Part shown: positions 1-9,481 of the stretch, piece after piece
How the letters are laid out: each line of letters starts with the position of its first letter
How positions within the stretch are numbered: the first letter of the stretch is position 1
The notes under the pieces: generated by a model
The model's input: the letters and a program-made list of their open reading frames with translations, nothing else
Databases searched by the model: none
Told to the model about the DNA's origin: nothing
Translations under genes and position numbers: made by a program
Source of the DNA: a virus
Taxonomy: Duplodnaviria > Heunggongvirae > Uroviricota > Caudoviricetes
IMG/VR virus record: IMGVR_UViG_2711768076_000006
Location: 1-9,481 of that record
Length of the DNA stretch: 9,481 nucleotides
Direction: 5' to 3' (one strand)

Positions 1-676
1 GCAGCGGCGCAAGATTTTTTGTGCGCTGCTTCAGTATGCTGGTGGCGGTCTGCTCTCCCGGTACGATGTCGCTTTCGCGGTACACCGAGCGGATTTTTTC
101 CGCACGCAATCCCAGAGAACGACGTAATACTGCCTCCGGCAATACGTCCGCTACCTGATTGCAGACCGCCCACCAGGATAATTCAGCCAGCGATAACTCC
201 CGCTCCTGTGTACCGTTTATTGCGTGGCGGATGACGTCAATCATCCAGGATGTCAGGTTTTGTTGAGCAAGTTGCCCGAGTGATTCTGAAGTCTGGTCGC
301 GTAACTGATTATCACAGTGCCAGCACAATACCATCGCGCCGGTACCGTAACGATGTATGACGGTTTCACTGTGGTGGTAGTCACCATGAGGCCACTGGCA
401 GGATTTAACATGGCGTAACAGCCAGTCAGACAATGCGCCAGCGCCGCCAGCAGCACGAATCACCCGCTCATCGCTGAAAAATGGCAGTAATGATTTATCT
501 TCCGCGAGCGGCTGGCGCACGGCAGGAACAGCTCCTGACGGCAGACCGCGCATGCTTTTCGGTTCCGGCTCCACCAGCACCCGGGGATTATGAAATACCT
601 GCATGGATTCACGGCCCGGCTTAAGGACCACCAGCCCGAGTTCCGGTACCAGAACAGGTCGAAGTAATACCCGCAC
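1..676 (-). CDS. DUF968/YdfU-like prophage protein, N-terminal part only (C-terminus lies beyond the window start)
   Basis: Hand translation of the - strand gives one frame with no stop from 679 down to position 1 (about 226 codons); the ORF track omits it because it has no stop inside the window. Possible starts are GTG at 676 (GGAGG 4 nt upstream) or ATG at 604. Contains a CWHCDNQ and His-rich stretch. Sits next to hok and rem-like as in Qin (hokD-rem-ydfU). Confidence 0.55.
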   Translation of the reverse strand, partial: MRVLLRPVLVPELGLVVLKPGRESMQVFHNPRVLVEPEPKSMRGLPSGAVPAVRQPLAEDKSLLPFFSDERVIRAAGGAGALSDWLLRHVKSCQWPHGDYHHSETVIHRYGTGAMVLCWHCDNQLRDQTSESLGQLAQQNLTSWMIDVIRHAINGTQERELSLAELSWWAVCNQVADVLPEAVLRRSLGLRAEKIRSVYRESDIVPGEQTATSILKQRTKNLAPL

Positions 677-677
677 G

Positions 678-956
678 TTACCTCCAGATACGCTGCTGGA
701 ATGTGCGAGACGGACGCGGTGGGCGTTCAGAGTAAGGAAGCCTGACGGAGATTATCCAGTGACGATAATCGAGGCTGAGGGCTTTCTTAATCTCGTATCC
801 GTGTCTGCGGTAGCACTGAATTAGCCACTCGGCCTGTTCTTCAGTGCATGGGTCATGCTGGAACCAGTCAGATTTGAAAGTGCGGGAACGCCGCCCGTGC
901 CTGCTGGCAAAGACGGCAGAATCATCAGAATTGTGTAATTTGGTATCGTGCGCCAT
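678..956 (-). CDS. Rem-like small prophage protein (92 aa, function unknown)
   Basis: Trimmed from track ORF 678-1085. The 5' extension of that ORF covers the hok terminator hairpin at 1027-1055, so the ATG at 956 (MAHDTKL...) is the likely start. Its TAA stop is 1 nt from the GTG of the next gene (TAAcGTG). Position matches rem in Qin. Confidence 0.5.
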   Translation of the reverse strand: MAHDTKLHNSDDSAVFASRHGRRSRTFKSDWFQHDPCTEEQAEWLIQCYRRHGYEIKKALSLDYRHWIISVRLPYSERPPRPSRTFQQRIWR

Positions 957-1026
957 CGGTTGTCTCTGCTGGCGCAGCAGGTGCCAGTTGTTCAGGCTGG
1001 CGTGCGAATTGTAAACCAGAATGCCA

Positions 1027-1055
1027 GGAAAAAACAAAACCCGCCGAAGCGGGTT
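1027..1055 (-). terminator. Rho-independent terminator downstream of hok
   Basis: On the - strand, hairpin AACCCGC-TTCG-GCGGGTT followed by TTGTTTTTTCC, about 70 nt after the hok stop. Confidence 0.6.
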
Positions 1056-1123
1056 AAGTGCGGGTGCGTTGAGGATGCCTGACACATCAGAGGTGGCGAG
1101 GGATTTCTCCCCCGCCTGGTCTC

Positions 1124-1279
1124 TTACTCCTCAGGTTCGTAAGCTGTGAAGACAGCGACCTCCGTCTGGCCGGTTCGGATTCGTACCTCGCAGAGGTCTT
1201 TCCTCGTTACCAGTGCCGTCACTATGACGGTTAAACAGATGACGATCAGGGCGATTAACATCGCCTTTTGCTGCTTCAT
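1124..1279 (-). CDS. hokD: Hok/Gef-family type I toxin, 51 aa membrane peptide
   Basis: MKQQKAMLIALIVICLTVIVTALVTRKDLCEVRIRTGQTEVAVFTAYEPEE is a canonical Hok sequence and matches HokD/RelF as I recall it. AAGGAG lies 9 nt upstream of the ATG at 1279. Confidence 0.85.
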   Translation of the reverse strand: MKQQKAMLIALIVICLTVIVTALVTRKDLCEVRIRTGQTEVAVFTAYEPEE

Positions 1280-1336
1280 AGCCTGCTTCTCCTTGACCTT
1301 TCGGTCCGTAAGAGGCAATCTATATGTGACGAGCAT
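1124..1336 (-). CDS. mok: Mok reading frame (in-frame N-terminal extension of hok that couples hok translation)
   Basis: ATG at 1336 in frame with hok adds MLVTYRLPLTDRKVKEKQA, which resembles the N-terminus of chromosomal Mok peptides (mokC MLNTCRVPLTDRKVKEKRA from memory). Confidence 0.55.
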   Translation of the reverse strand: MLVTYRLPLTDRKVKEKQAMKQQKAMLIALIVICLTVIVTALVTRKDLCEVRIRTGQTEVAVFTAYEPEE

Positions 1337-1378
1337 ATAGGGGCCTCACTTCGATTTATAGTCGGGTGGGGCTTTTAT
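1315..1378 (+). ncRNA. sok: Putative Sok-type antisense RNA opposite the mok translation start
   Basis: Inference from hok/sok architecture. + strand TTGACC at 1293-1298 is a possible -35, but no good -10 hexamer follows at 16-19 bp spacing. Imperfect hairpin GCCTCAC (1343-1349) / GTGGGGC (1365-1371) is followed by TTTTAT. Boundaries are approximate. Confidence 0.3.
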
Positions 1379-1471
1379 CTATCTGCCGTTGGTGTTCATG
1401 CCCGAGGCAGATAGCCTCAAGCACCCGCAGCAATTCTACTTAACTCTGCCGTTACAGCAAACCGTTTTCGC

Positions 1472-1495
1472 CCGATATGGGAATTCCCATATCGG
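1472..1495. repeat. 24-bp perfect palindrome CCGATATGGGAATTCCCATATCGG, function unknown
   Basis: The sequence equals its own reverse complement. It lies between the solute-binding-protein gene 3' end and the hok leader, with no U-run on either strand, so it is not a canonical terminator. Confidence 0.9.
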
Positions 1496-1560
1496 AATGA
1501 ATTCAGTTCACCTGGCGAGGCTTAGCGTACAATTTTTTCCGTTTTGTGAGCTGCCCCTAC

Positions 1561-1612
1561 ATGCCGCTGGCGCGGCATCCGGAAAAAGAATCCACGTCCT
1601 GAAGGACGTGGA
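1561..1612 (-). terminator. Rho-independent terminator region for the solute-binding-protein gene
   Basis: On the - strand, hairpin TCCACGTCC-TTCA-GGACGTGGA (1591-1612) followed by TTCTTTTTCC, then a second hairpin ATGCCGC-GCCA-GCGGCAT (1561-1578); starts 6 nt after the stop at 1618. Confidence 0.55.
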
Positions 1613-1617
1613 GGATG

Positions 1618-2376
1618 TCAAGTGCCTTTCCTGGTCCAGCCATATTTTTTGAATGCAGGCGCCGCTTCATCGGTTTGTAGCCATTCTGCAAATCGACGGG
1701 TTTCATCATTTGCATCCTGACGTACTGTAATGTTCATATCACGCCATATCACGTAGTCTGGCGCTATTTCCACGACATCACCAATTTCTGGATTACTGGC
1801 TGCCCAGTCAGCCCAGGTTATCCAGACATCTGCTCCAGGCTGATTCTCAAGAGCCTTACGTGCAGTTCCGCTATTGGGCGCATATAAAATAATATTTTTT
1901 CGGATTGCGGCGACAGTTTCTATATTCCCTTTACGTCCGGCAATATCTTCCCAGACGCCAGTGCCTGATGTATTACTGGTACCACCACCATCATTAACAA
2001 TTACGCCAATCCCGGGTCTGGTCAGGTCGTCAATACTCCGGATATTTTTAGGATTACCTTTCTTTACCAGTAAAATACTTTTTCGCAGATAAAGAGGCTG
2101 AATATCTTTTTCACTGAAGCTGTCTTTATGGTCCCGAATGATAGCCAGAGCAGATTGTTCTGATGCGCCAAACAAGATATCTGCATTTTTTTTGGCATCT
2201 TCATTCCATTTGTTCTGTGGACCGTAATGAACGTTCACTATAACACCTGTTTTTTCGGCATAAAGTTTGGCTGCTTCAAGCAAGGCTGTATGCGGGCCAC
2301 CAGGACCATACAGATTGATATCAGCATAAGCAGCAGAAGACAGGAATATTAAAAAACCTGCCATTATGTTCCTCAT
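1618..2376 (-). CDS. Secreted periplasmic solute-binding protein, ModA/WtpA-like, with no cognate transporter genes in the window
   Basis: 252 aa. N-terminal signal peptide MRNIMAGFLIFLSSAAYA with an AYA-D cleavage site. Mature N-terminus INLYGPGG...AEKTGVIVNV and C-terminus ...FKKYGWTRKG follow the ModA-type binding-protein pattern as I recall it. AAGGAG 7 nt upstream of the ATG. A 260-bp AT-rich region lies upstream. Confidence 0.85.
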   Translation of the reverse strand: MRNIMAGFLIFLSSAAYADINLYGPGGPHTALLEAAKLYAEKTGVIVNVHYGPQNKWNEDAKKNADILFGASEQSALAIIRDHKDSFSEKDIQPLYLRKSILLVKKGNPKNIRSIDDLTRPGIGVIVNDGGGTSNTSGTGVWEDIAGRKGNIETVAAIRKNIILYAPNSGTARKALENQPGADVWITWADWAASNPEIGDVVEIAPDYVIWRDMNITVRQDANDETRRFAEWLQTDEAAPAFKKYGWTRKGT

Positions 2377-2540
2377 AAAAAACTCCTTTTATTGGTTATC
2401 ATGAAATAAAATTATAAACACCACAAATAATATATATTATATCCAGATAAACTTATCCGACTTTACCTCGTGCATAGCTTGTTATTTAAAGTTAACAAAA
2501 TAAGGAAAATTATACGCATATTGAAGAGTATAAACCTTAC

Positions 2541-2568
2541 ATGTTGATTACATTTTTGTAATCAACAT
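2541..2568. promoter_or_regulatory. 12-bp perfect inverted repeat (ATGTTGATTACA-TTTT-TGTAATCAACAT), candidate operator upstream of the solute-binding-protein gene
   Basis: Seen directly in the sequence, about 170 bp upstream of the ATG at 2376 in the AT-rich region. A TATAAT hexamer lies between the repeat and the gene on the - strand (near 2505-2510). Confidence 0.4.
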
Positions 2569-2794
2569 CCTGTTTGGAATAGCCAGCCTTTAATGGATAA
2601 CTATTTCTGACAATGCAATGAGTATAATCAAGTCCATCTTCCACTGAGAATTAGAGGCGGCATGCTTTTTCCGGCTCTTGCCGGATATCCGTAATTGTCC
2701 ATAATCTGCAGATTTATACCTTCTGCATGACCTGTCAGCGAAAATTTGTCCGGTGTTTCTACGGGAATGACATCAAAAGTTACACGCACTCGCG

Positions 2795-3106
2795 TTACCG
2801 TGTAGACCTACTTTCCTGCACTTGCAAGATCACAGTGGTGTAACCGTAACAGGAATTTATTCTCTGGACCGGCAGTAAATCCCTGAGTGGCGTGGTTCCC
2901 ATATCAATTTCCCGCCAGGCAGCCTCCATTGCCAGCGTACAGGCTGGAGCCATGACCTGCCCTTTAAATCTGGCCCGACCATCCCACCGGACGTGTTCTT
3001 CTCCCCTGAACTTAGGTACAGTCATCTCCAGTGGCACAAAAGTGTCAGCGCCATGATTTTTGACCGTTATCGCGCTACGGATATTTTGTTGACTGGTGAA
3101 AATCAC
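2795..3106 (-). CDS. Hypothetical protein (103 aa), weak call, possibly a gene remnant
   Basis: Track ORF that starts with GTG and has no clear RBS; no family recognised. It is in the same frame as the DUF1627-like gene but separated from it by at least three stop codons. Confidence 0.2.
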   Translation of the reverse strand: MIFTSQQNIRSAITVKNHGADTFVPLEMTVPKFRGEEHVRWDGRARFKGQVMAPACTLAMEAAWREIDMGTTPLRDLLPVQRINSCYGYTTVILQVQESRSTR

Positions 3107-3235
3107 CCCGCAGAATCAGGCTTATTCCCTTAACCCGGGATTTCATCCTGACCGCCGCCTCACTACGACCAATCAGACTGCCGATGCATTTTACCTTCAT
3201 TGTTAGTATCATGATTTCAGGCCTGCACCATCCGC

Positions 3236-4033
3236 TCATTGCCCGGACTTCCGACAAATCCCGGCAACCATATCCCGGTGCTTGTTCAACTCCCGCAGCG
3301 CGGCGCAGACTCGCTCCCACTTCTGGACATGATTCTTCGCCCTACGCAGTTCGCGATTTGCCATATGCAGCGATGGCAAAATCAAATCATCTTCTCGCGT
3401 TGCAGTAAACGATGGCAGCGACTGCACAATGTCCGCCACAGTTTCTGTTTTAATATCTTCCTGTGTTGCATCTTTCTGTACCGGTAACGCAACACCGGCT
3501 GGCTGAGGAAAGGCTTTACCATCGGTTTCCGTTACCGATACGGCTTTCGGCTTTGCTGGTAAATTATCGTCCGGCATGCAGTAACGGAATTTACCGTTCT
3601 GATTTACGCGAATCAGACGCCCTTTGCTGATTGCCATTGCCAGCGTTGAAGCTACTTTGCGTGATGTGGTACCGAACAACGTAGCCAGTTCATCCGCCGT
3701 TTGTGGTCCGCGTTGTTCAATCGTCGCGGTTAAATCGCACTCTGAGATTTTCGCTACTGTTGCTGTGGTGGTTTCTTCCGGCAGCTCTGCCTGCGCTGGC
3801 TGTTCCTGCTGAACGTTGTTATCAGCCACACGCCAGGTGTACGCGCTTTTATCAACAAAACCAGCCTTTTTCAGTTCCCATAGTTCGTTAAGCACTTCTT
3901 CACGACTGACATCAAGTCGCGCCGCAAGTTCTATGGATGTGGCTTTTCCCATTGCTTTCAGTGCGTCAAAAACAGTCTCCATTAAATTTTTTTCCTGGTA
4001 AAAATTACTTTGTGATTCCTGGCTGGACGACAT
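3236..4033 (-). CDS. DUF1627-like prophage protein with an N-terminal winged-helix-like domain and an acidic linker
   Basis: 265 aa ORF directly downstream of the DnaC-like gene, the usual position in Rac-type prophages (ydaW position). The ATG at 4033 overlaps the DnaC-like 3' end by 29 nt; the alternative ATG at 3982 ([13 protein letters not shown]...) is also possible. Confidence 0.75.
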
Positions 4034-4751
4034 TCGGGCGCCAGCTTTCCCAGTTAAAACTCACCCAGCGTCCGCCGTTCATGGTCATGCGATCCATAAT
4101 CCGCTCACCGAGCAATGTTTTCATGGCCTCATAGTTCAGGTTTGTCAGCATTCCCACGCTACGCATCGACGCTGTCCGTCGATCAATAATCTGGTGCAGT
4201 ACTACCTGCTCGTTTTTCGTCTCGCGCTGAATGCCAATTTCATCAAGAACCAGCAGATCCACTTCGCACAGTTCCCGCAATAATTTTTCGCCTGACTGCC
4301 CGTCGTCATAGCTGGCATGCAGGGCACTCATAACATCAGCCACGGTAACCACAATCACTGCCTGACCGTCTTTCAGCAGGCGATTTCCGATAGCTGCCGC
4401 TAAATGGTTCTTCCCGGTACCAGGTTTTCCGCTGAACGCAAAATTTGTACACCCGGTCATCAGTTCATCGGCGATGGATTTCGCCTGGCTTAACGCGTAT
4501 CGCTGGCCGTCGTTCTGCACCTGGTAATTTGCAAACGAGCATTTACGATGCAACGGCTGGATGCCTGAGCGATTCAGAATTTTTTCCACCCGCAACTGAC
4601 GATTCAGGCGGTTGATCTCCTCGCTACGTTTTCGCCCTTCTGCAAGCTGCCACTCTCGCCACTCGTCCACTGTCCGGCACGGCGCGGTTACATGCTGCGG
4701 AGTCAGCTTACGGATACGTTCAAGAACACCGCCTGTCGCAATATTTTTCAC
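4005..4751 (-). CDS. DnaC-like replicative helicase loader (AAA+ ATPase), YdaV-like
   Basis: 248 aa with Walker [16 protein letters not shown] and Walker [12 protein letters not shown] start with GGGGG 9 nt upstream; begins 7 nt after the O-like stop. Confidence 0.9.
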
Positions 4752-4757
4752 AGTTCG

Positions 4758-5723
4758 TTACCCCCTAAACCCCGGCGGAATTTCGGTGTCTGGTTCAGAA
4801 ATATGATTCACACAACGCTGTACAGGTGAACGCCCCAGGCGGATGACCAGTTCGTCCCATTTTTCGCGGAGCTTTGACGGGCTCATGATGTTTTTTACCC
4901 AGAATGGATCCCGCTGTACCCGCCCAAACATTTCGCAAATTTGTCTGTGAGTTCTGCCATCCAGCATCCGCATTGTGCGCACATCATTGGCCCATGCGGT
5001 CCAGTTTGGTTCTTTCGGTCGCGAGATCTCGCCATCATCGCTGGCAGCCTGCTCGTAAAGACTCACAATTCGTCCCCAGATCCACTGTGCGCACGCCAAA
5101 TCTTCCTGACTTCCCCACTGGCGTTTTTTCGCACTGAACACAACCGCGTCAGGGTGTCGGGTTAAAAAATCCTGTTCAGCCGTCTGCGGGTCCGGTTGCG
5201 AAGCTTCCGGACGAGAAGTGTTTTTATTCTCTGTAGTAATCTCTGTTGTATTCTCTGTAAGATCATCAGGCCATTTTGACCCGATGACATTGGGTCGTTT
5301 TGAACCAATGGAGCGTGCCATTTTGACCTCTTCCATCGTGTCATTTTGACCTGATGGAGCGGTGCATTTTGACCTGATGGATTCGCTCACTTTGCCACCA
5401 TCTAAAAGCTCACTCTCGTAATTAATCGTGTAAAAATTAGTCATATCACGCTTTGATTTGTTGAGCTTTTCACAACGCAAAAGCCCCAGCGTTTTCAGAC
5501 TTGCAAATGCGCGTTTTAACGTTGACTCTGACCAGAACGGGAACTGTTCCAGCCATTGTTCTGTTGTGTTATAAATCCAGCGAACACCATCACATTCCAT
5601 GCCGGAACCGGTATCTCTCAACCAGTAATGCAGCTGCTGCAACACGATGGCTTCGTTCAGACCAATTTTCATCGCCAGCTGCGTGTTTATAACCAGCGGG
5701 CGTTCAGCAAAAAGGAGCTTCAT
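4758..5723 (-). CDS. Phage replication initiator (replisome organizer, lambda O-like / YdaU-like)
   Basis: 321 aa. Lies immediately upstream of the DnaC-like gene, and the origin iterons are inside its coding sequence, as with lambda O. Confidence 0.88.
   Translation of the reverse strand: MKLLFAERPLVINTQLAMKIGLNEAIVLQQLHYWLRDTGSGMECDGVRWIYNTTEQWLEQFPFWSESTLKRAFASLKTLGLLRCEKLNKSKRDMTNFYTINYESELLDGGKVSESIRSKCTAPSGQNDTMEEVKMARSIGSKRPNVIGSKWPDDLTENTTEITTENKNTSRPEASQPDPQTAEQDFLTRHPDAVVFSAKKRQWGSQEDLACAQWIWGRIVSLYEQAASDDGEISRPKEPNWTAWANDVRTMRMLDGRTHRQICEMFGRVQRDPFWVKNIMSPSKLREKWDELVIRLGRSPVQRCVNHISEPDTEIPPGFRG
5227..5396. repeat. Probable prophage replication origin: six iterons at 23-bp periodicity plus an adjacent AT-rich block with three 12-bp repeats
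   Basis: CATTTTGACC-type repeats start at 5272, 5296, 5319, 5342, 5365 and 5388 (the second and last are degenerate). TCTCTGT repeats at 5228, 5240 and 5252. All lie inside the O-like gene. Confidence 0.7.
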
Positions 5724-5744
5724 CCCCTCCCCCAGAACACGTTA

Positions 5745-6170
5745 TCAATGCGCCACCACGGCATTTCCCGCCGGACCACCACGATTCATCTGATTGAAAC
5801 CAGCAATTACCACCGCGACAAGTTCATCAGCGTCTCTCACCAGTCGTTCATGCGTATCCACCAGTTCCCGAAAATAATCGGAACTGTGGCTGCGCATCCA
5901 GGCCACCAGCGGAGGTGGCATTGCCTTTTCGATCGCTGGTAACAAAGCCTGAATTTTTTTAACCGCATCAGGGGTGTCTTTCTCCACCCAGCGGAAAATT
6001 TTCTGAGTATTGCGAGCCAGGGCTTCCGGATGGCTGTCGTCATACAGTTCCGGGAATGTCATACCCAGCTCAAAATAAGCCCGGGTTATTTCAGCTGCCG
6101 GAACTTTTTCACCGTCCGGACGCGCCCAGGCATTCATCGCCATGCGGATGTGTTCATGCTTGATTTTCAT
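5745..6170 (-). CDS. ydaT: YdaT-like protein (toxic partner of the RacR-controlled ydaS-ydaT operon)
   Basis: 141 aa. AAGAGG 10 nt upstream of the ATG; overlaps the ydaS-like 3' end by 17 nt. Position and size match Rac ydaT (about 140 aa). Confidence 0.8.
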   Translation of the reverse strand: MKIKHEHIRMAMNAWARPDGEKVPAAEITRAYFELGMTFPELYDDSHPEALARNTQKIFRWVEKDTPDAVKKIQALLPAIEKAMPPPLVAWMRSHSSDYFRELVDTHERLVRDADELVAVVIAGFNQMNRGGPAGNAVVAH

Positions 6171-6477
6171 GAATCATTTGCCTCTTGATGCTTCGGGTAT
6201 GATCGTTTTTGTCATTTGGTTGCTTCATCGACATATTCTGCGAATAACATGACGAACGTCGTAAGTATGACCAGTCAACATCAGGACGAAGTTCTTCACA
6301 CAGGACTCCACCTTTTGTTGCTCGTTCAATCGCTGGACATCTCTCGGCAGGCAACCGACGTACACCTTTGATCCATTGATTTACGCTTGGAGGCGATACC
6401 CCTAAAAGTCTGGCCATTGCTGATTGCCCACCAACAACAGCACAAGCTCGTTTGAATGAATAGTTCTCTTTTTTCAT
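6154..6477 (-). CDS. ydaS: YdaS-like Cro/HTH-type DNA-binding protein
   Basis: Start taken at ATG 6477 (MKKENYSFKRACAVVGGQSAMARLLGVSPPSVNQWIKG...), with GGAG 9 nt upstream. Divergent from the repressor, with operators in the shared intergenic region. Confidence 0.8.
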   Translation of the reverse strand: MKKENYSFKRACAVVGGQSAMARLLGVSPPSVNQWIKGVRRLPAERCPAIERATKGGVLCEELRPDVDWSYLRRSSCYSQNMSMKQPNDKNDHTRSIKRQMIHENQA

Positions 6478-6499
6478 CGAATGAACTCCAAAAAACACA

Positions 6500-6572
6500 C
6501 AATGATATTAGGCGGCGCCTAATATCATTGTCAATAGGCTATGCCTAACAACCAAGAGGTAGGGATTGCCTA
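6500..6572. promoter_or_regulatory. Right-operator-like region: three TAGGC-N3-GCCTA palindromes in the racR/ydaS divergent promoter region
   Basis: Cores at 6509-6521 (inside a 14+3+14 bp perfect palindrome, 6500-6530), 6535-6547, and 6560-6572 (TAGGG variant). Centre-to-centre spacing is 26 and 25 bp. Confidence 0.6.
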
Positions 6573-6601
6573 ATGCAATGCACATAGGAGACTATTAAGC
6601 A

Positions 6602-7078
6602 ATGCTTAGTGGTAAAGACTTAGGCCGAGCGATAGAGCAGGCCATTAATAAAAAAATTGCATCAGGAGCCGTCAAATCAAAGGCGGAGATCGCACGCCAT
6701 TTCAAAGTCCAACCACCATCAATCCATGACTGGATTAAGAAAGGTTCGATAAGTAAAGATAAACTTCCAGAACTATGGCGTTTCTTTTCTGATGTGGTTG
6801 GTCCAGAGCATTGGGGGCTTAACGAATACCCCATACCAACCCCTTCCTGCTCAGATTCAAAAAGAGAACTTTTAGACATAAACAGCCTTTATCAAGCCGC
6901 TTCTGATGAAAAAAGAGCAATTGTAGCCTTCCTCTTATCTGGAAATGCTGCGGAGCCTGGTTGGGTTGATTATGACGTTCGCGCCTACATTACTGCAATG
7001 GAAATGAAGGTAAGTAACTATCTGAAAAATCAAGAATCAGAACGGAAAAGCCAGAACATCACCAAAACGGGAACTTAA
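6602..7078 (+). CDS. racR: Prophage repressor, RacR-like
   Basis: 158 aa (MLSGKDLGRAIEQAINKK...), the same length as Rac RacR. AGGAG upstream. Flanked on both sides by the same operator palindrome family. Confidence 0.82.
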   Translation: MLSGKDLGRAIEQAINKKIASGAVKSKAEIARHFKVQPPSIHDWIKKGSISKDKLPELWRFFSDVVGPEHWGLNEYPIPTPSCSDSKRELLDINSLYQAASDEKRAIVAFLLSGNAAEPGWVDYDVRAYITAMEMKVSNYLKNQESERKSQNITKTGT

Positions 7079-7175
7079 ACTTATATGGTCCGACGGGAAG
7101 CACCTAGATCCCGTTATTTAGCTCCCATTACCTCTTCCACATACCATCGCCTATTAGGTTGTGCGCAAAAGGCAT

Positions 7176-7213
7176 TAGGCATAGCCTATTGACAAGCAAT
7201 TAGGCATTACCTA
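7176..7213. promoter_or_regulatory. Left-operator-like region: two TAGGC-N3-(G/A)CCTA sites downstream of racR, upstream of the + strand early operon
   Basis: Cores at 7176-7188 and 7201-7213, 25 bp apart. The 21-mer at 7175-7195 is the exact reverse complement of 6528-6548. Confidence 0.5.
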
Positions 7214-7398
7214 TAGTTTTCTCATACCAACCCACCCCGCCCCACAGAATGCAGGGCAATACTTTGAGTTACCAGGCAGTGGTCAGGGGGTAAGTAGCCA
7301 GCCCGAGGCGTAAGAACATGACGGCAGGGTTCAACTTTAATAACTATGCAGCAGGTTTTTGTTCCGCTACCCCGGCGTTAAGGGGAAATGAGGTCAGC

Positions 7399-7554
7399 AT
7401 GGATACTATCGATCTTGGCAACAACGAATCTCTGGTGTACGGCGTGTTTCCCAACCAGGACGGTACGTTCACCGCGATGACGTATACCAAAAGCAAAACG
7501 TTTAAAACCGAAAATGGTGCCCGTCGCTGGCTGGAAAGATACTCAGGTGAGTGA
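7399..7554 (+). CDS. YdfA/YdaF-family small prophage protein (51 aa)
   Basis: ATG at 7399 with GAGG 5 nt upstream (MDTIDLGNNESLVYGVFPNQDG...). The alternative ATG at 7318 would give 78 aa. Confidence 0.6.
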   Translation: MDTIDLGNNESLVYGVFPNQDGTFTAMTYTKSKTFKTENGARRWLERYSGE

Positions 7555-7555
7555 T

Positions 7556-8131
7556 ATGGATTTCAACACGATCATGGGAAAGGCTTACGAAGAATACTTC
7601 GAAGGCCTTGCCGAAGGCGAAGAAGCTCTCAGCTTCAGTGAGTTTAAACAGGCACTCAGAATAAGAATGTGCTCTCACAATGACGCGGAGCACAAATATG
7701 AGAAGCAAAATCAGACCGCAGAAAATTTTGTTCTGGAACCCGGAGAAACGCTTTTCAAAATTCCCGTTACGTGCCCCATTTGCGGTTTTACATCAGAAGA
7801 ACTTGACGACTCCTGTAACAATCAGGAAACAACCAAGTATGTCGAAGATGATACCGAGTGCGCACGAAGAACGATTATATCCACGAGTCCAAACTCCAGG
7901 ACCAATAAATCTCACTTTGAGAGGGTGATTAATCCACTCCCCCAAACCAATAAAAAAGATGCCGGAGGACAAAAAACCCAATGGAACAACGGGATATCTG
8001 TCAAAAAAAGACGTTCCATTAAAGACAAACAACGCAGCGCCAACAACTGTAAGCACTTTATACCAGTAATCAATTTTCATGTTCTTAAGCGGATTTATTG
8101 GTGGTTGCGACATTGCTTAATGAATCCTTAA
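7556..8131 (+). CDS. Small early-operon protein whose frame runs on for 191 codons; only the N-terminal ~90 aa look protein-like
   Basis: ATG at 7556 is 1 nt after the upstream TGA, with GGTGAG upstream. Beyond about 7800 the frame is rich in AGA, AGG, ATA and CGA codons and lies antisense to a membrane-protein ORF. Confidence 0.3.
   Translation: MDFNTIMGKAYEEYFEGLAEGEEALSFSEFKQALRIRMCSHNDAEHKYEKQNQTAENFVLEPGETLFKIPVTCPICGFTSEELDDSCNNQETTKYVEDDTECARRTIISTSPNSRTNKSHFERVINPLPQTNKKDAGGQKTQWNNGISVKKRRSIKDKQRSANNCKHFIPVINFHVLKRIYWWLRHCLMNP
7793..8113 (-). CDS. Putative small inner-membrane protein in the sieB position (superinfection-exclusion-like)
   Basis: 106 aa with three hydrophobic segments (YKVLTVVGAALFVF, VVPLGFLSSGIFFIGLG, ALGIIFDILGCFLIVTGVV). 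ATG at 8113 with AAGGA 11 nt upstream; alternative ATG at 8080. Convergent with the early operon, as sieB is in lambda and Rac. Confidence 0.4.
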   Translation of the reverse strand: MSQPPINPLKNMKIDYWYKVLTVVGAALFVFNGTSFFDRYPVVPLGFLSSGIFFIGLGEWINHPLKVRFIGPGVWTRGYNRSSCALGIIFDILGCFLIVTGVVKFF

Positions 8132-8390
8132 AACTGTGGTGATTTTAAGGATACCACCTCGCCTGACGTTGTTAAAAGCAGGCACACAACACGAAAGCGC
8201 ACGGCGAAGTTCGTCTCACTGTACGGTGTCGTTAAATTTAATTCGACCGTGCGCTTCCGGTTGTGGCAACCCGCGAAATGGCGCGGCGGTAAGTATGGCG
8301 GGGTTATTCCTTCCCCGTTGAGGACACCGGGTTGTCAGGTTGACCATACGCTTAAGTGACAACTCCGCTGCAACGCCCTCTGTTATCAAT

Positions 8391-8448
8391 TTTCTGGTGA
8401 CTTTTGGCGGTATCAGTTCTACTCCGTGACTGCTCTGCCGCCCTTTTT
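8391..8448 (+). ncRNA. dicF: DicF small RNA (antisense inhibitor of ftsZ translation) with its 3' terminator
   Basis: TTTCTGGTGACTTTTGGCGGTATCAGTTCTACTCCGTGACTGCTCTGCCGCCC plus a T-run closely matches the K-12 DicF sequence as I recall it. It sits immediately upstream of dicB as in Qin. Confidence 0.7.
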
Positions 8449-8617
8449 AAAGTGAATTTTGTGATGTGGTGAATGCGGCTAAGCGCACGCGGAACAGTTA
8501 AAACCAAAAACAGTGTTATGGGTGGATTCTCTGTATCCGGCGTTAATTGTTAACTGGTTAACGTCACCTGGAGGCACCAGGCACCGCATCACAAAATTCA
8601 TTGTTGAGGACGCGATA

Positions 8618-8806
8618 ATGGAAACGTTATTACCAAACGTTAATACGTCTGAAGGTTGTTTTGAAATTGGTGTCACTATCAGTAACCCTGTATTTACTGA
8701 AGATGCCATTAACAAGAGAAAACACGAACGGGAGTTATTAAATAAAATATGCATTCTTTCAATGCTGGCCCGTTTACGTCCGACACAAAAAGGATGCTGG
8801 CAATGA
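8618..8806 (+). CDS. dicB: Cell division inhibitor DicB (62 aa)
   Basis: METLLPNVNTSEGCFEIGVTISNPVFTEDAINKRK... matches DicB from memory. GAGGA upstream of the ATG at 8618. Confidence 0.85.
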   Translation: METLLPNVNTSEGCFEIGVTISNPVFTEDAINKRKHERELLNKICILSMLARLRPTQKGCWQ

Positions 8807-8994
8807 ATACAGCATTTGCACTTGTTCTGACAGTTTTTCTTGTTTCCGGAGAACCAGTTGATATTGCAGTCAGTGTTCACAGGACAATGCAGGAGTGTGT
8901 GACTGCAGCAACCGAACAGAAAATTCCCGGTAACTGTTACCCGGTCGATAAAGTTATTCACCTGGATAATAACGAAATCCCGGCAGGTCTTTAA
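8803..8994 (+). CDS. ydfD: YdfD-like small protein with N-terminal hydrophobic segment (63 aa)
   Basis: ATG at 8803 overlaps the dicB stop (ATGA). MNTAFALVLTVFLVSGEPVDIAVSVHRT... AAAGGA about 10 nt upstream. Confidence 0.8.
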   Translation: MNTAFALVLTVFLVSGEPVDIAVSVHRTMQECVTAATEQKIPGNCYPVDKVIHLDNNEIPAGL

Positions 8995-9086
8995 AACAGT
9001 TCCGTAATAAACATCCGATTTCATTCTTATATGCCAGCAATGGCAGGGATTTGTTCACCCTTAAATCTGTAATGAGGTAAAACAAA

Positions 9087-9481
9087 ATGAGTAAAGTCTT
9101 TATTTGCGCCGCCATTCCGGACGAACAGGCAATAAAGGAAGAAGGTGCAGTCGCTGTAGCTACTGCCATTGAAGCCGGTGATGAACGTCGCGCCCGCGCA
9201 AAATTTCACTGGCAATTCCTGGAACATTATCCGGCTGCTCAGGACTGCGCTTATAAATTTCTTGTCTGCGAGGATAAACCCGGTATACCCCGCCCTGCCC
9301 TCGATTCCTGGGATGCTGAATATATGCAGGAAAACCGCTGGGATGAGGCGTCTGCTTCCTTTGTCCCGGTTGAGACTGAATCAGATCCGATGAACGTCAC
9401 TTTTGACAAGCTGGCCCCTGAAGTACAGAACGCTGTCATGGTTAAGTTCGACACATGTGAAAACATCACCGTTGATATGGT
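9087..9481 (+). CDS. ydfE: YdfE-like protein, N-terminal part only (continues past the window end)
   Basis: Hand-translated open frame from ATG 9087 (MSKVFICAAIPDEQAIKEEGAVAVATAIEAGDERR...) with no stop before the window end; TGAGGT 8 nt upstream. Absent from the ORF track because it has no stop in the window. Confidence 0.7.
   Translation, partial: MSKVFICAAIPDEQAIKEEGAVAVATAIEAGDERRARAKFHWQFLEHYPAAQDCAYKFLVCEDKPGIPRPALDSWDAEYMQENRWDEASASFVPVETESDPMNVTFDKLAPEVQNAVMVKFDTCENITVDM

Follow-up and report, generated by a model that had tools for sequence, protein, structure and literature searches.

Phage lambda carries a single plus-strand gene, sieB, inside its leftward pL operon; sieB ends at 35036 and the early gene N ends at 35037. 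Ranade and Poteete reportedly found in 1993 that P22 sieB is controlled by an antisense RNA and by a self-protecting product (Esc, sas). SieB aborts the lytic cycle of relatives that superinfect and spares the phage itself (PMC10883804). In the Qin prophage of Escherichia coli, the dicB operon is placed under a DicA-type repressor at the promoter dicBp, and its transcript is processed to yield DicF (bioRxiv 10.1101/2023.04.14.536235). Here we describe a pair of convergent, overlapping open reading frames (ORFs) in a stretch of 9,481 nucleotides (positions 1 to 9,481 of IMG/VR virus record IMGVR_UViG_2711768076_000006), which we call the window. The window is lambdoid prophage sequence and is 100% identical to the prophage that lies beside rspB/ynfA (the Qin site) in E. 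coli AMSHJX01. We lean towards reading the locus as a two-gene cassette in the early-left (dicB-type) operon of a Qin/Rac-like lambdoid prophage, with a membrane-protein gene on the minus strand and a convergent micro-ORF on the plus strand that runs on, without a stop, through the whole of the membrane gene.

An earlier note on this DNA had claimed a plus-strand ORF with no stop for 191 codons, antisense to an ORF of 106 codons, and both are present. The plus-strand ORF occupies 7556-8131, starts with ATG, and extends for 191 codons to a TAA at 8129-8131. The minus-strand ORF (7793-8113; 106 codons) starts with ATG, ends with TGA, and lies wholly within the plus-strand ORF. The two frames are codon-aligned, with position 2 facing position 2, so that a plus-strand stop can arise only from a minus-strand TTA, CTA, or TCA. 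None of these codons occurs among the 10 Leu and 6 Ser codons of the minus-strand ORF. The good ribosome-binding site (RBS) and protein-like N-terminus attributed to the plus-strand ORF were also borne out. AGGTGA lies 8-11 nt upstream of ATG 7556, and the start is coupled to the stop of ydfA (TGA, 7552-7554), which precedes it by one base. Codons 1-34 (7556..7657, plus strand) are derived from ydfB; the encoded residues 1-34 match phrog_2061 (E 9e-20) and K-12 YdfB. The rare codons said to mark the distal two-thirds of the ORF are enriched there only moderately (1/34 in the YdfB part, 7/45 in the middle, and 13/112 in the tail, with 9/106 in the minus-strand ORF).

Comparison with other prophages revealed how the plus-strand ORF came to lack a stop. 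The DNA is 97% identical to K-12 Qin up to 7656, where blastn homology to both K-12 and O157 Qin ends; it restarts at 8174. The breakpoints against K-12, O157, and other prophages delimit a cassette of 516 bp (7658..8173) that contains the micro-ORF, the membrane gene, and the promoter of the membrane gene. K-12 YdfB ends in KQAL-SSSAKSNG (...KQALSSSAKSNG, then a stop), whereas the window reads KQAL-RIRMCSH and continues to 191 codons. Thus, the N-terminal 34 residues of YdfB and the ydfA-coupled start are retained, but the native C-terminus and stop are absent. The homology breakpoints, together with the divergent end of YdfB, point to cassette replacement and not to a point mutation; of the suggestion that the gene had lost its stop, the loss stands and the single mutation does not. 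Alignment to Qin locates the ancestral stop eight codons past the breakpoint in K-12 ydfB, and it was lost with the swap. The cassette took the place of the final 8 ydfB codons with their stop, of ydfC, and of the spacer that follows in K-12 Qin. K-12 and O157 carry a short, intact ydfB of 42 aa, and K-12 Qin has no opposite-strand gene at the cassette site. The cassette is found in 806 of 5,426 complete E. coli genomes, 784 of which carry it at ≥99% identity, and its structure is shared by phage HannyBb and more than 100 viral contigs. As with a moron, prophages that are otherwise collinear have it whole or, in the case of K-12, O157, and strain 163, carry an alternative in its place. The site between ydfB and dicF (window 7658-8173; L003, L046, and L047 among our locus identifiers, which begin with L or P) is a hotspot for cassettes, some of which have minus-strand genes. 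In K-12 the site holds ydfC, in O157 AR-0427 it holds a 129-aa plus-strand gene and a 61-aa minus-strand gene, and in strain 163 it holds ydfC and, on the minus strand, a zinc-binding gene of the ECs_2282 family.

The minus-strand ORF is a real, unannotated gene that encodes a 106-aa inner-membrane protein with three helices (7793..8113, minus strand). It belongs to an uncharacterised family marked by the motifs DYWYK and GLGEWINHP plus R81. A database search returned 40 homologues, with identities down to 38% and nearly all 102-114 aa in length, from Escherichia, Edwardsiella, Yersinia, and metagenomes. DYWYK, GLGEWINHP, R81, and several glycines are invariant in the family. A genome scan placed 27 loci in Beta-, Gamma-, and Alphaproteobacteria, Campylobacterota, Desulfobacterota, and other groups, and an exhaustive profile search yielded 463 family clusters at E <= 1e-3. 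Spuriousness of the minus-strand ORF is therefore ruled out by a conserved family with homologues across phyla. Polymorphism among 96 E. coli-type alleles agrees with this conservation, and the two together show that the gene is under purifying selection: 21 of 38 variants in 7793-8113 fall at the third codon position of the minus frame, and 18 are synonymous versus 18 non-synonymous in the membrane gene. The product matched nothing in Pfam (E <= 0.1), NCBIfam, or PHROGs, and neither its sequence nor that of the plus-strand product matched a defence-protein family in PADLOC-DB 2.0 at E <= 1. The plus-strand product of the region had no match in Pfam or NCBIfam either. The three hydrophobic segments mentioned in the earlier note were found, centred near residues 26, 49, and 94. 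An AlphaFold model (pLDDT 80) contains an N-terminal amphipathic helix, long helices at residues 17-32, 42-62, and 85-105, and a hairpin at 66-78. A check of membrane topology showed that the charge distribution fits three helices with the N-terminus inside; the conserved GLGEWINHP..R loop is predicted to face the cytoplasm.

Cryptic and viral copies of the membrane gene include several that are interrupted. The copy in APEC O2-211 (L016) has two nonsense mutations, at window equivalents 7866 and 7889; among six viral contigs (L188, L197, L205, L261, L171, and L177), four have one nonsense mutation and two an apparent truncating insertion. The plus frame remains open in the nonsense alleles. 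The chromosome of Arcobacter sp. Pygsuia-1 contains three copies at three places (L031-L033), each 37% identical to the query; the neighbour of L031 is an S24 CI-like repressor, a hint that a prophage or mobile element is repeated there.

Enterobacterial copies of the membrane gene are without exception located in lambdoid immunity regions, antisense to early-left genes and next to a CI-like, DicA-like, or RacR-like repressor; in Rac-like relatives the gene lies between a racR-like repressor and kilR. Distant members adjoin S24 repressors, AbiJ plus IS110, DUF5677 genes, or Fic genes, and the Edwardsiella copy lies between AbiH and DUF2971 genes. From this slot, its orientation, and the neighbouring genes, our best guess is that the lysogen expresses the product as a membrane effector of exclusion or abortive infection.

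The membrane gene also appears to have its own promoter. A consensus scan and a conserved block define a promoter-like region with an RBS at 8125..8175 (minus strand), which comprises a -35 element TTAACA (8175-8170), a TG-extended -10 element TATCCT (8153-8148), and AAGGA (8129-8125). The block TTTAAC/TTATCC..GGTGGTATCCT upstream of the gene is kept in all lineages, Edwardsiella included; the 80 nt upstream of the gene are conserved across lineages, and nucleotide similarity to two relatives (L006 and L009) reaches about 8190-8197. This putative extended -10 promoter would allow the membrane protein to be made in the lysogen while the surrounding operon is repressed. Three CCAC/GTGG half-sites (aaCCACgtcaggcgagGTGGtatccttaaaatcaCCAC; window 8140-8180, minus strand), conserved across lineages, flank the -10 element; they could be an operator or a hairpin in the 5' leader. 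No convincing intrinsic terminator was detected for either gene, only a weak hairpin at 7616-7597 on the minus strand.

Directly 3' of the membrane-gene stop, all enterobacterial lineages (E. coli, L129/L044, L045, P0014, Yersinia, and Edwardsiella) encode a convergent micro-ORF with the consensus ..PGE.lF.IP..CP(I/V)CGF, and Roseateles has a variant of the motif. In the window, the micro-ORF module (7667..7792, plus strand) has its own ATG at 7667 but is read in frame behind ydfB; its conserved core spans 7721-7792 and the IPxxCPICGF motif 7760-7789. The micro-ORF measures about 35-41 codons up to the Phe, and in L045 and L129 it starts at the ribosome-binding site of ydfA. Across its 8 invariant residue columns, 0 of 16 first and second codon positions vary, versus 6 of 8 third positions. 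The YdfB part of the ORF shows 7 synonymous and 3 non-synonymous variants among the 96 alleles. The micro-ORF is thus real and under clear purifying selection, as is the plus strand outside the overlap more generally. Used as a profile query, the micro-ORF alignment brought up no independent family but only one noisy copy and one frameshifted YdfB fusion, and a DNA-pattern scan of viral contigs for the motif found more E. coli-type alleles and no new lineage. Shorter apparent homologues (P0035, P0036, P0039, and P0041) were set aside as frameshifted E. coli-type copies from noisy assemblies. In three viral contigs (L129, L131, and L132), a single frame opens with the micro-ORF at the ydfA RBS, crosses the membrane gene, and extends into ydfC, with about 270 codons between its flanking stops.

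The tail of the plus-strand ORF (7793..8131, plus strand; 112 codons plus stop), which is the codon-aligned antisense of the membrane gene, behaves differently. It is very hydrophilic (GRAVY -1.10). Among the 96 alleles, its polymorphism in the plus frame amounts to 28 non-synonymous, 8 synonymous, and 2 stop-gain variants. Between lineages, antisense identity is always lower than sense identity (for example, 0.60 versus 0.83), and falls to 0.29-0.41 between lineages whose membrane proteins share 50-67% identity. Synonymous sites of the membrane gene are not more conserved among the open lineages than between these and Edwardsiella, which lacks the tail. The tail thus shows no constraint at the level of amino acids.

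Openness of the frame follows another pattern. The plus frame is stop-free in 6 of 7 enterobacterial lineages, and TTA, CTA, and TCA are absent from the membrane gene of E. coli, L129/L044, L045, P0014, Yersinia, and L142, although GC is about 0.41; protein identity among these six lineages ranges from 50 to 87%. In 66 neighbouring prophage genes, the three codons occur at 4.1 per 106 codons, and of 94 windows of that length only 3 are free of them; lambda sieB has 9 in 184 codons. Among family members with GC <=0.50 and no CPxCG motif in a flank scan, the antisense frame is open in 1 of 17. In that exception, L024 from Martelella alba (2896-3351), an ATG preceded by a good Shine-Dalgarno sequence lies upstream, 34 codons ahead of the overlap (..LSPGSVLVDEETGEIVLIGW..), and may open a version of the micro-ORF that lacks Cys. 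A general avoidance of A-ending codons was ruled out. A-ending CTN and TCN codons number 0 of 35, versus 40 of 209 (19%) in other codon families of the same genes (p = 0.002), and TTA makes up 0 of 12 TTR codons, versus 13 of 21 A-ending codons (62%) for K, E, and Q (p = 0.0005). With each alignment column counted only once, the joint probability of finding no stop-complement codons is 7e-6 under E. coli genome usage and 2e-8 under the usage of neighbouring genes. The end of the frame is equally regular: the plus-strand stop always falls 18-39 nt beyond the start codon of the membrane gene (18 nt in the window). We conclude that in most lineages selection acts on the openness of the frame and not on the sequence of the tail, subject to shared ancestry, a small gene, and one clear exception. 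It is probably translation through the antisense stretch that is selected.

The way in which such a locus would most likely operate can be outlined, and what we say of its function we infer from sequence. In the lysogen, the early promoter would be repressed, and the membrane gene would be expressed from its own promoter. Upon derepression, RNA polymerase would read ydfA, the fusion of truncated ydfB to the micro-ORF, and then the membrane gene in antisense; this read-through would silence the membrane gene via convergent transcription and antisense pairing. The CPxCGF micro-protein, which would be made only when the early operon fires, may be a partner or an antagonist of the membrane protein. 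The micro-ORF lies fused behind ydfB codons 1-34 because the cassette replaced the end of ydfB, and in the absence of a stop of its own ribosomes would run on through the whole membrane gene into its 5' leader. Trailing ribosomes could keep transcription and translation coupled across the antisense insert until just inside that leader. Such coupling would shield the early transcript both against Rho-dependent polarity and against pairing with the membrane-gene mRNA, and dicF, dicB, and later genes would still be expressed from the protected transcript. The most economical reading of the tail would be that ribosome transit is what matters in it. We propose, more tentatively than for the cassette as a whole, that the translated plus frame is a selected bridge for ribosome transit in an early operon that has no lambda-style antitermination, and that the micro-protein is functionally paired with the membrane protein. 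Lambda possesses N antitermination, and the antisense frame of its sieB is closed, an arrangement that fits the bridge weakly. The plus strand of the overlap is A-rich and has slightly more C than G, a composition that is not decisive as to whether it is a substrate for Rho.

Several observations weigh against this picture. About 260 nt of untranslated RNA separate the plus-strand stop from DicF, which weakens the argument from polarity. Stop-gain alleles of the plus frame occur at about the neutral rate; of 96 loci, 4 carry 7861C>A and 1 carries 7955A>T. In L044, a TGA interrupts the motif itself (CPVC, then a stop), and in Edwardsiella the plus-strand ORF ends with CPICGFTSE and its stop, with 8 antisense stops beyond. 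The Edwardsiella locus contains 2.5 kb of further same-strand genes that no bridge could span, so that this exception fits the proposal weakly. The lineages are not fully independent, since about 45-50% of codons are shared at conserved residues. In some cryptic copies, the membrane gene is knocked out by nonsense mutations or by an insertion sequence (IS). Fold searches with the membrane protein returned only generic helical bundles and were uninformative. Finally, the micro-protein is not a canonical zinc ribbon with two conserved CxxC knuckles: a single CPxC is invariant and the other Cys residues are lineage-specific.

The strongest competitor, which we nevertheless consider unlikely, holds that the tail is an ordinary shadow ORF. 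A micro-ORF without a nearby stop would drift through a frame that is open by chance; hydrophobic, T-rich codons and inherited codon choices would leave few antisense stops, and openness would be unselected. The codon-aligned frame is known to yield long antisense ORFs, the tail is unconstrained (28 non-synonymous versus 8 synonymous variants) and always less conserved than its sense strand, truncation is tolerated in the stop-gain alleles, Edwardsiella, and L044, and the lineages share ancestry. Chance does not readily account, however, for zero stop-complement codons in six lineages that diverge to 50-87% protein identity, with P between 7e-6 and 2e-8 when each column counts once and A-ending codons used normally elsewhere in the same genes. 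Nor does it account for the normal rate of such codons in neighbouring genes and lambda sieB, or for the closed frame of 16 of 17 low-GC relatives without the CPxCG motif in the flank scan. A quite different proposal attributes function to the whole 191-aa product, with a basic, hydrophilic C-terminal domain encoded antisense to the membrane gene. This dual coding at the level of protein, which we rate as very doubtful, is favoured by the open frame, and gene callers do predict the product (RefSeq WP_053897472.1; phrog_35040; a 221-aa call in L045). Wherever the membrane protein is conserved, the tail is bound to show conserved stretches too, such as FIPVINFH. Against dual coding, the synonymous sites of the membrane gene lack any excess of conservation when Edwardsiella serves as control, polymorphism in the plus frame is neutral, truncated alleles exist, and tail identity is only 0.29-0.41. 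The N-terminal context differs as well: the window has a YdfB fusion, L045 and L129 use the ydfA start, and L129 also reads through into ydfC.

The membrane protein could instead be the toxin of a toxin-antitoxin-like or abortive-infection module, with the plus-strand transcript and micro-protein as antidote and the overlap serving antisense control and not translation. Convergent genes with overlapping 3' ends, each with its own putative promoter, would suit such a module, and nonsense mutations and IS insertions in several cryptic copies are what is expected of a costly gene. Abi genes lie nearby in other hosts, and the hok/sok module elsewhere in the window shows that the prophage makes use of such logic. 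We regard this proposal as rather improbable: at 106 aa and three helices the protein exceeds classical type I toxins in size, neither PADLOC nor Pfam gave a toxin hit, and the open plus frame is unexplained by the module itself. The proposal is also compatible with the cassette-and-bridge model and does not exclude it. Scarcely any credence attaches to the idea that ydfB has lost its stop by a mutation in one strain or by a sequencing artefact, or that the minus-strand ORF is spurious. The 42-aa ydfB is intact in K-12 and O157 and the minus-strand ORF is unannotated in RefSeq, but 806 genomes and more than 100 viral contigs share the structure, 516 bp have been replaced, and homologues of the minus-strand product occur across phyla, so that this explanation is already refuted. 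None of the three alternatives in the earlier note (a lost stop, one spurious ORF, or a genuine antisense-overlapping pair) is right alone, and each is partly right. Spuriousness does not apply to the minus-strand ORF or to the first 78 plus-strand codons, and only arguably to the tail. The pair is genuine insofar as the convergent micro-ORF is conserved and openness exceeds chance, but not in the sense of constraint on the amino acids of the tail.

The locus has been annotated from the opposite side. Neither the six RefSeq E. coli records nor the HannyBb record has an annotation for the membrane gene. The plus-strand ORF is labelled as a hypothetical protein (191 or 205 aa) or, by PGAP, as a ydfB pseudogene missing its C-terminus in the records inspected; in PHROGs it matched only its own singleton-like family (phrog_35040) and YdfB (phrog_2061). 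Thus, RefSeq annotates the wrong strand at this locus, and Pfam has no model for a family that comprises several hundred clusters. In Qin/Rac-type prophages, the sieB slot holds a different and widespread pair of membrane protein and micro-protein, whose relatives have Abi neighbours in other hosts. That makes the pair a concrete candidate for an exclusion or abortive-infection module of a new kind. Claims of antisense overlap in bacteria are disputed, as most candidates are indistinguishable from shadow ORFs; the present locus separates two signals, in that openness is conserved and sequence is not. If our interpretation is true, about 15% of complete E. coli genomes contain a locus selected for double use of sense and antisense that has been annotated on the wrong strand.

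The layout of the window matches the dicB-type early-left operon described for Qin. A module of the ydaS/ydaT type precedes the racR-like repressor gene (6602-7078, plus strand) in feature order. A site resembling the promoter of the early-left operon (7189..7217, plus strand; TTGACA, 17 nt, TATAGT), which is a consensus match, agrees with 11 of 12 consensus positions and lies between the repressor gene and ydfA, the location of dicBp in Qin. The first gene of the operon is ydfA (DUF1391; 7399..7554, plus strand; PF07151, E 1.5e-27, and RefSeq annotation of the identical record). A mechanically called ydfA ORF (7318-7554, plus strand) has 78 codons from ATG 7318; the annotated and conserved start is ATG 7399 (51 aa). 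The stretch upstream of that ATG (..AAGFCSATPALRGNEV) is conserved as DNA in relatives, where it forms the leader of the micro-ORF. Beyond the run-on ORF (7556-8131, plus strand; 191 codons), the same operon continues with the DicF small RNA (8392..8443, plus strand; Rfam RF00039, 71.5 bits, E 1.3e-14, and RefSeq annotation), dicB (8618-8806, plus strand), a ydfD-like gene, an exonuclease gene, xis, and int. Elsewhere in the window, on the minus strand, lie a hokD/sok type I toxin-antitoxin module (1124-1426; sok RNA 1277-1426, RF01794, 103.9 bits; hokD CDS 1124-1279) and paa (1618-2376), a virulence-associated cargo gene for an AcfC-family adhesin, which adjoins a frameshifted fimbrial-protein pseudogene (about 2537-3070).

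In comparing the locus with lambda and P22 sieB, we found both a shared arrangement and clear differences. The claim that the minus-strand ORF occupies the position of sieB was confirmed: slot and orientation are the same as for lambda sieB, with an opposite-strand membrane-protein gene inside an early-left operon, near the repressor and convergent with an upstream early gene, and in Rac-like relatives the membrane gene fills the slot between racR and kilR. The label sieB-like does not extend to homology. Alignment of the family to lambda SieB by hhalign gave a probability of 0.1%, and PF14163 was not matched. Lambda SieB has 184 aa, versus 106 aa here, and with 9 antisense stops its gene is not read through. 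The self-immunity of P22 SieB may parallel the proposed antagonism by the convergent micro-ORF, although the candidate self-immunity factor here is a separate convergent ORF and not the product of an internal in-frame start. In the literature we searched, the dicBF operon and sieB are both treated, but nothing turned up on the cassette.

With the ydfA-ydfB-ydfC-dicF-dicB region of K-12 Qin, the window shares the promoter region, ydfA, ydfB codons 1-34, DicF, dicB, ydfD, and the rspB/ynfA neighbourhood; the two differ where K-12 has the 3' end of ydfB and all of ydfC and the window has the cassette. Long codon-aligned antisense ORFs are familiar in bacteria as shadow ORFs or antisense overlapping genes, such as the overlapping-gene candidates in enterohaemorrhagic E. 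coli (EHEC). The tail shows the same frame relation, in which stops arise only via TTA, CTA, or TCA, and an equally unconstrained antisense product. The open frame here differs in that it extends a micro-ORF under purifying selection and recurs down to 50% protein identity, beyond what local codon usage predicts. Like prophage morons and defence cassettes (lambda rexAB and Abi genes), the cassette is variably present, lies in opposite orientation, and has Abi-type neighbours elsewhere, and its putative promoter may be a further likeness; unlike them, it matches no PADLOC model and has a conserved convergent partner ORF. On this comparison of sequences, we view the locus as a variant on the theme of the sieB-slot moron and of antisense overlap, with an uncharacterised membrane family, a convergent micro-ORF, and a putative read-through that has statistical support.

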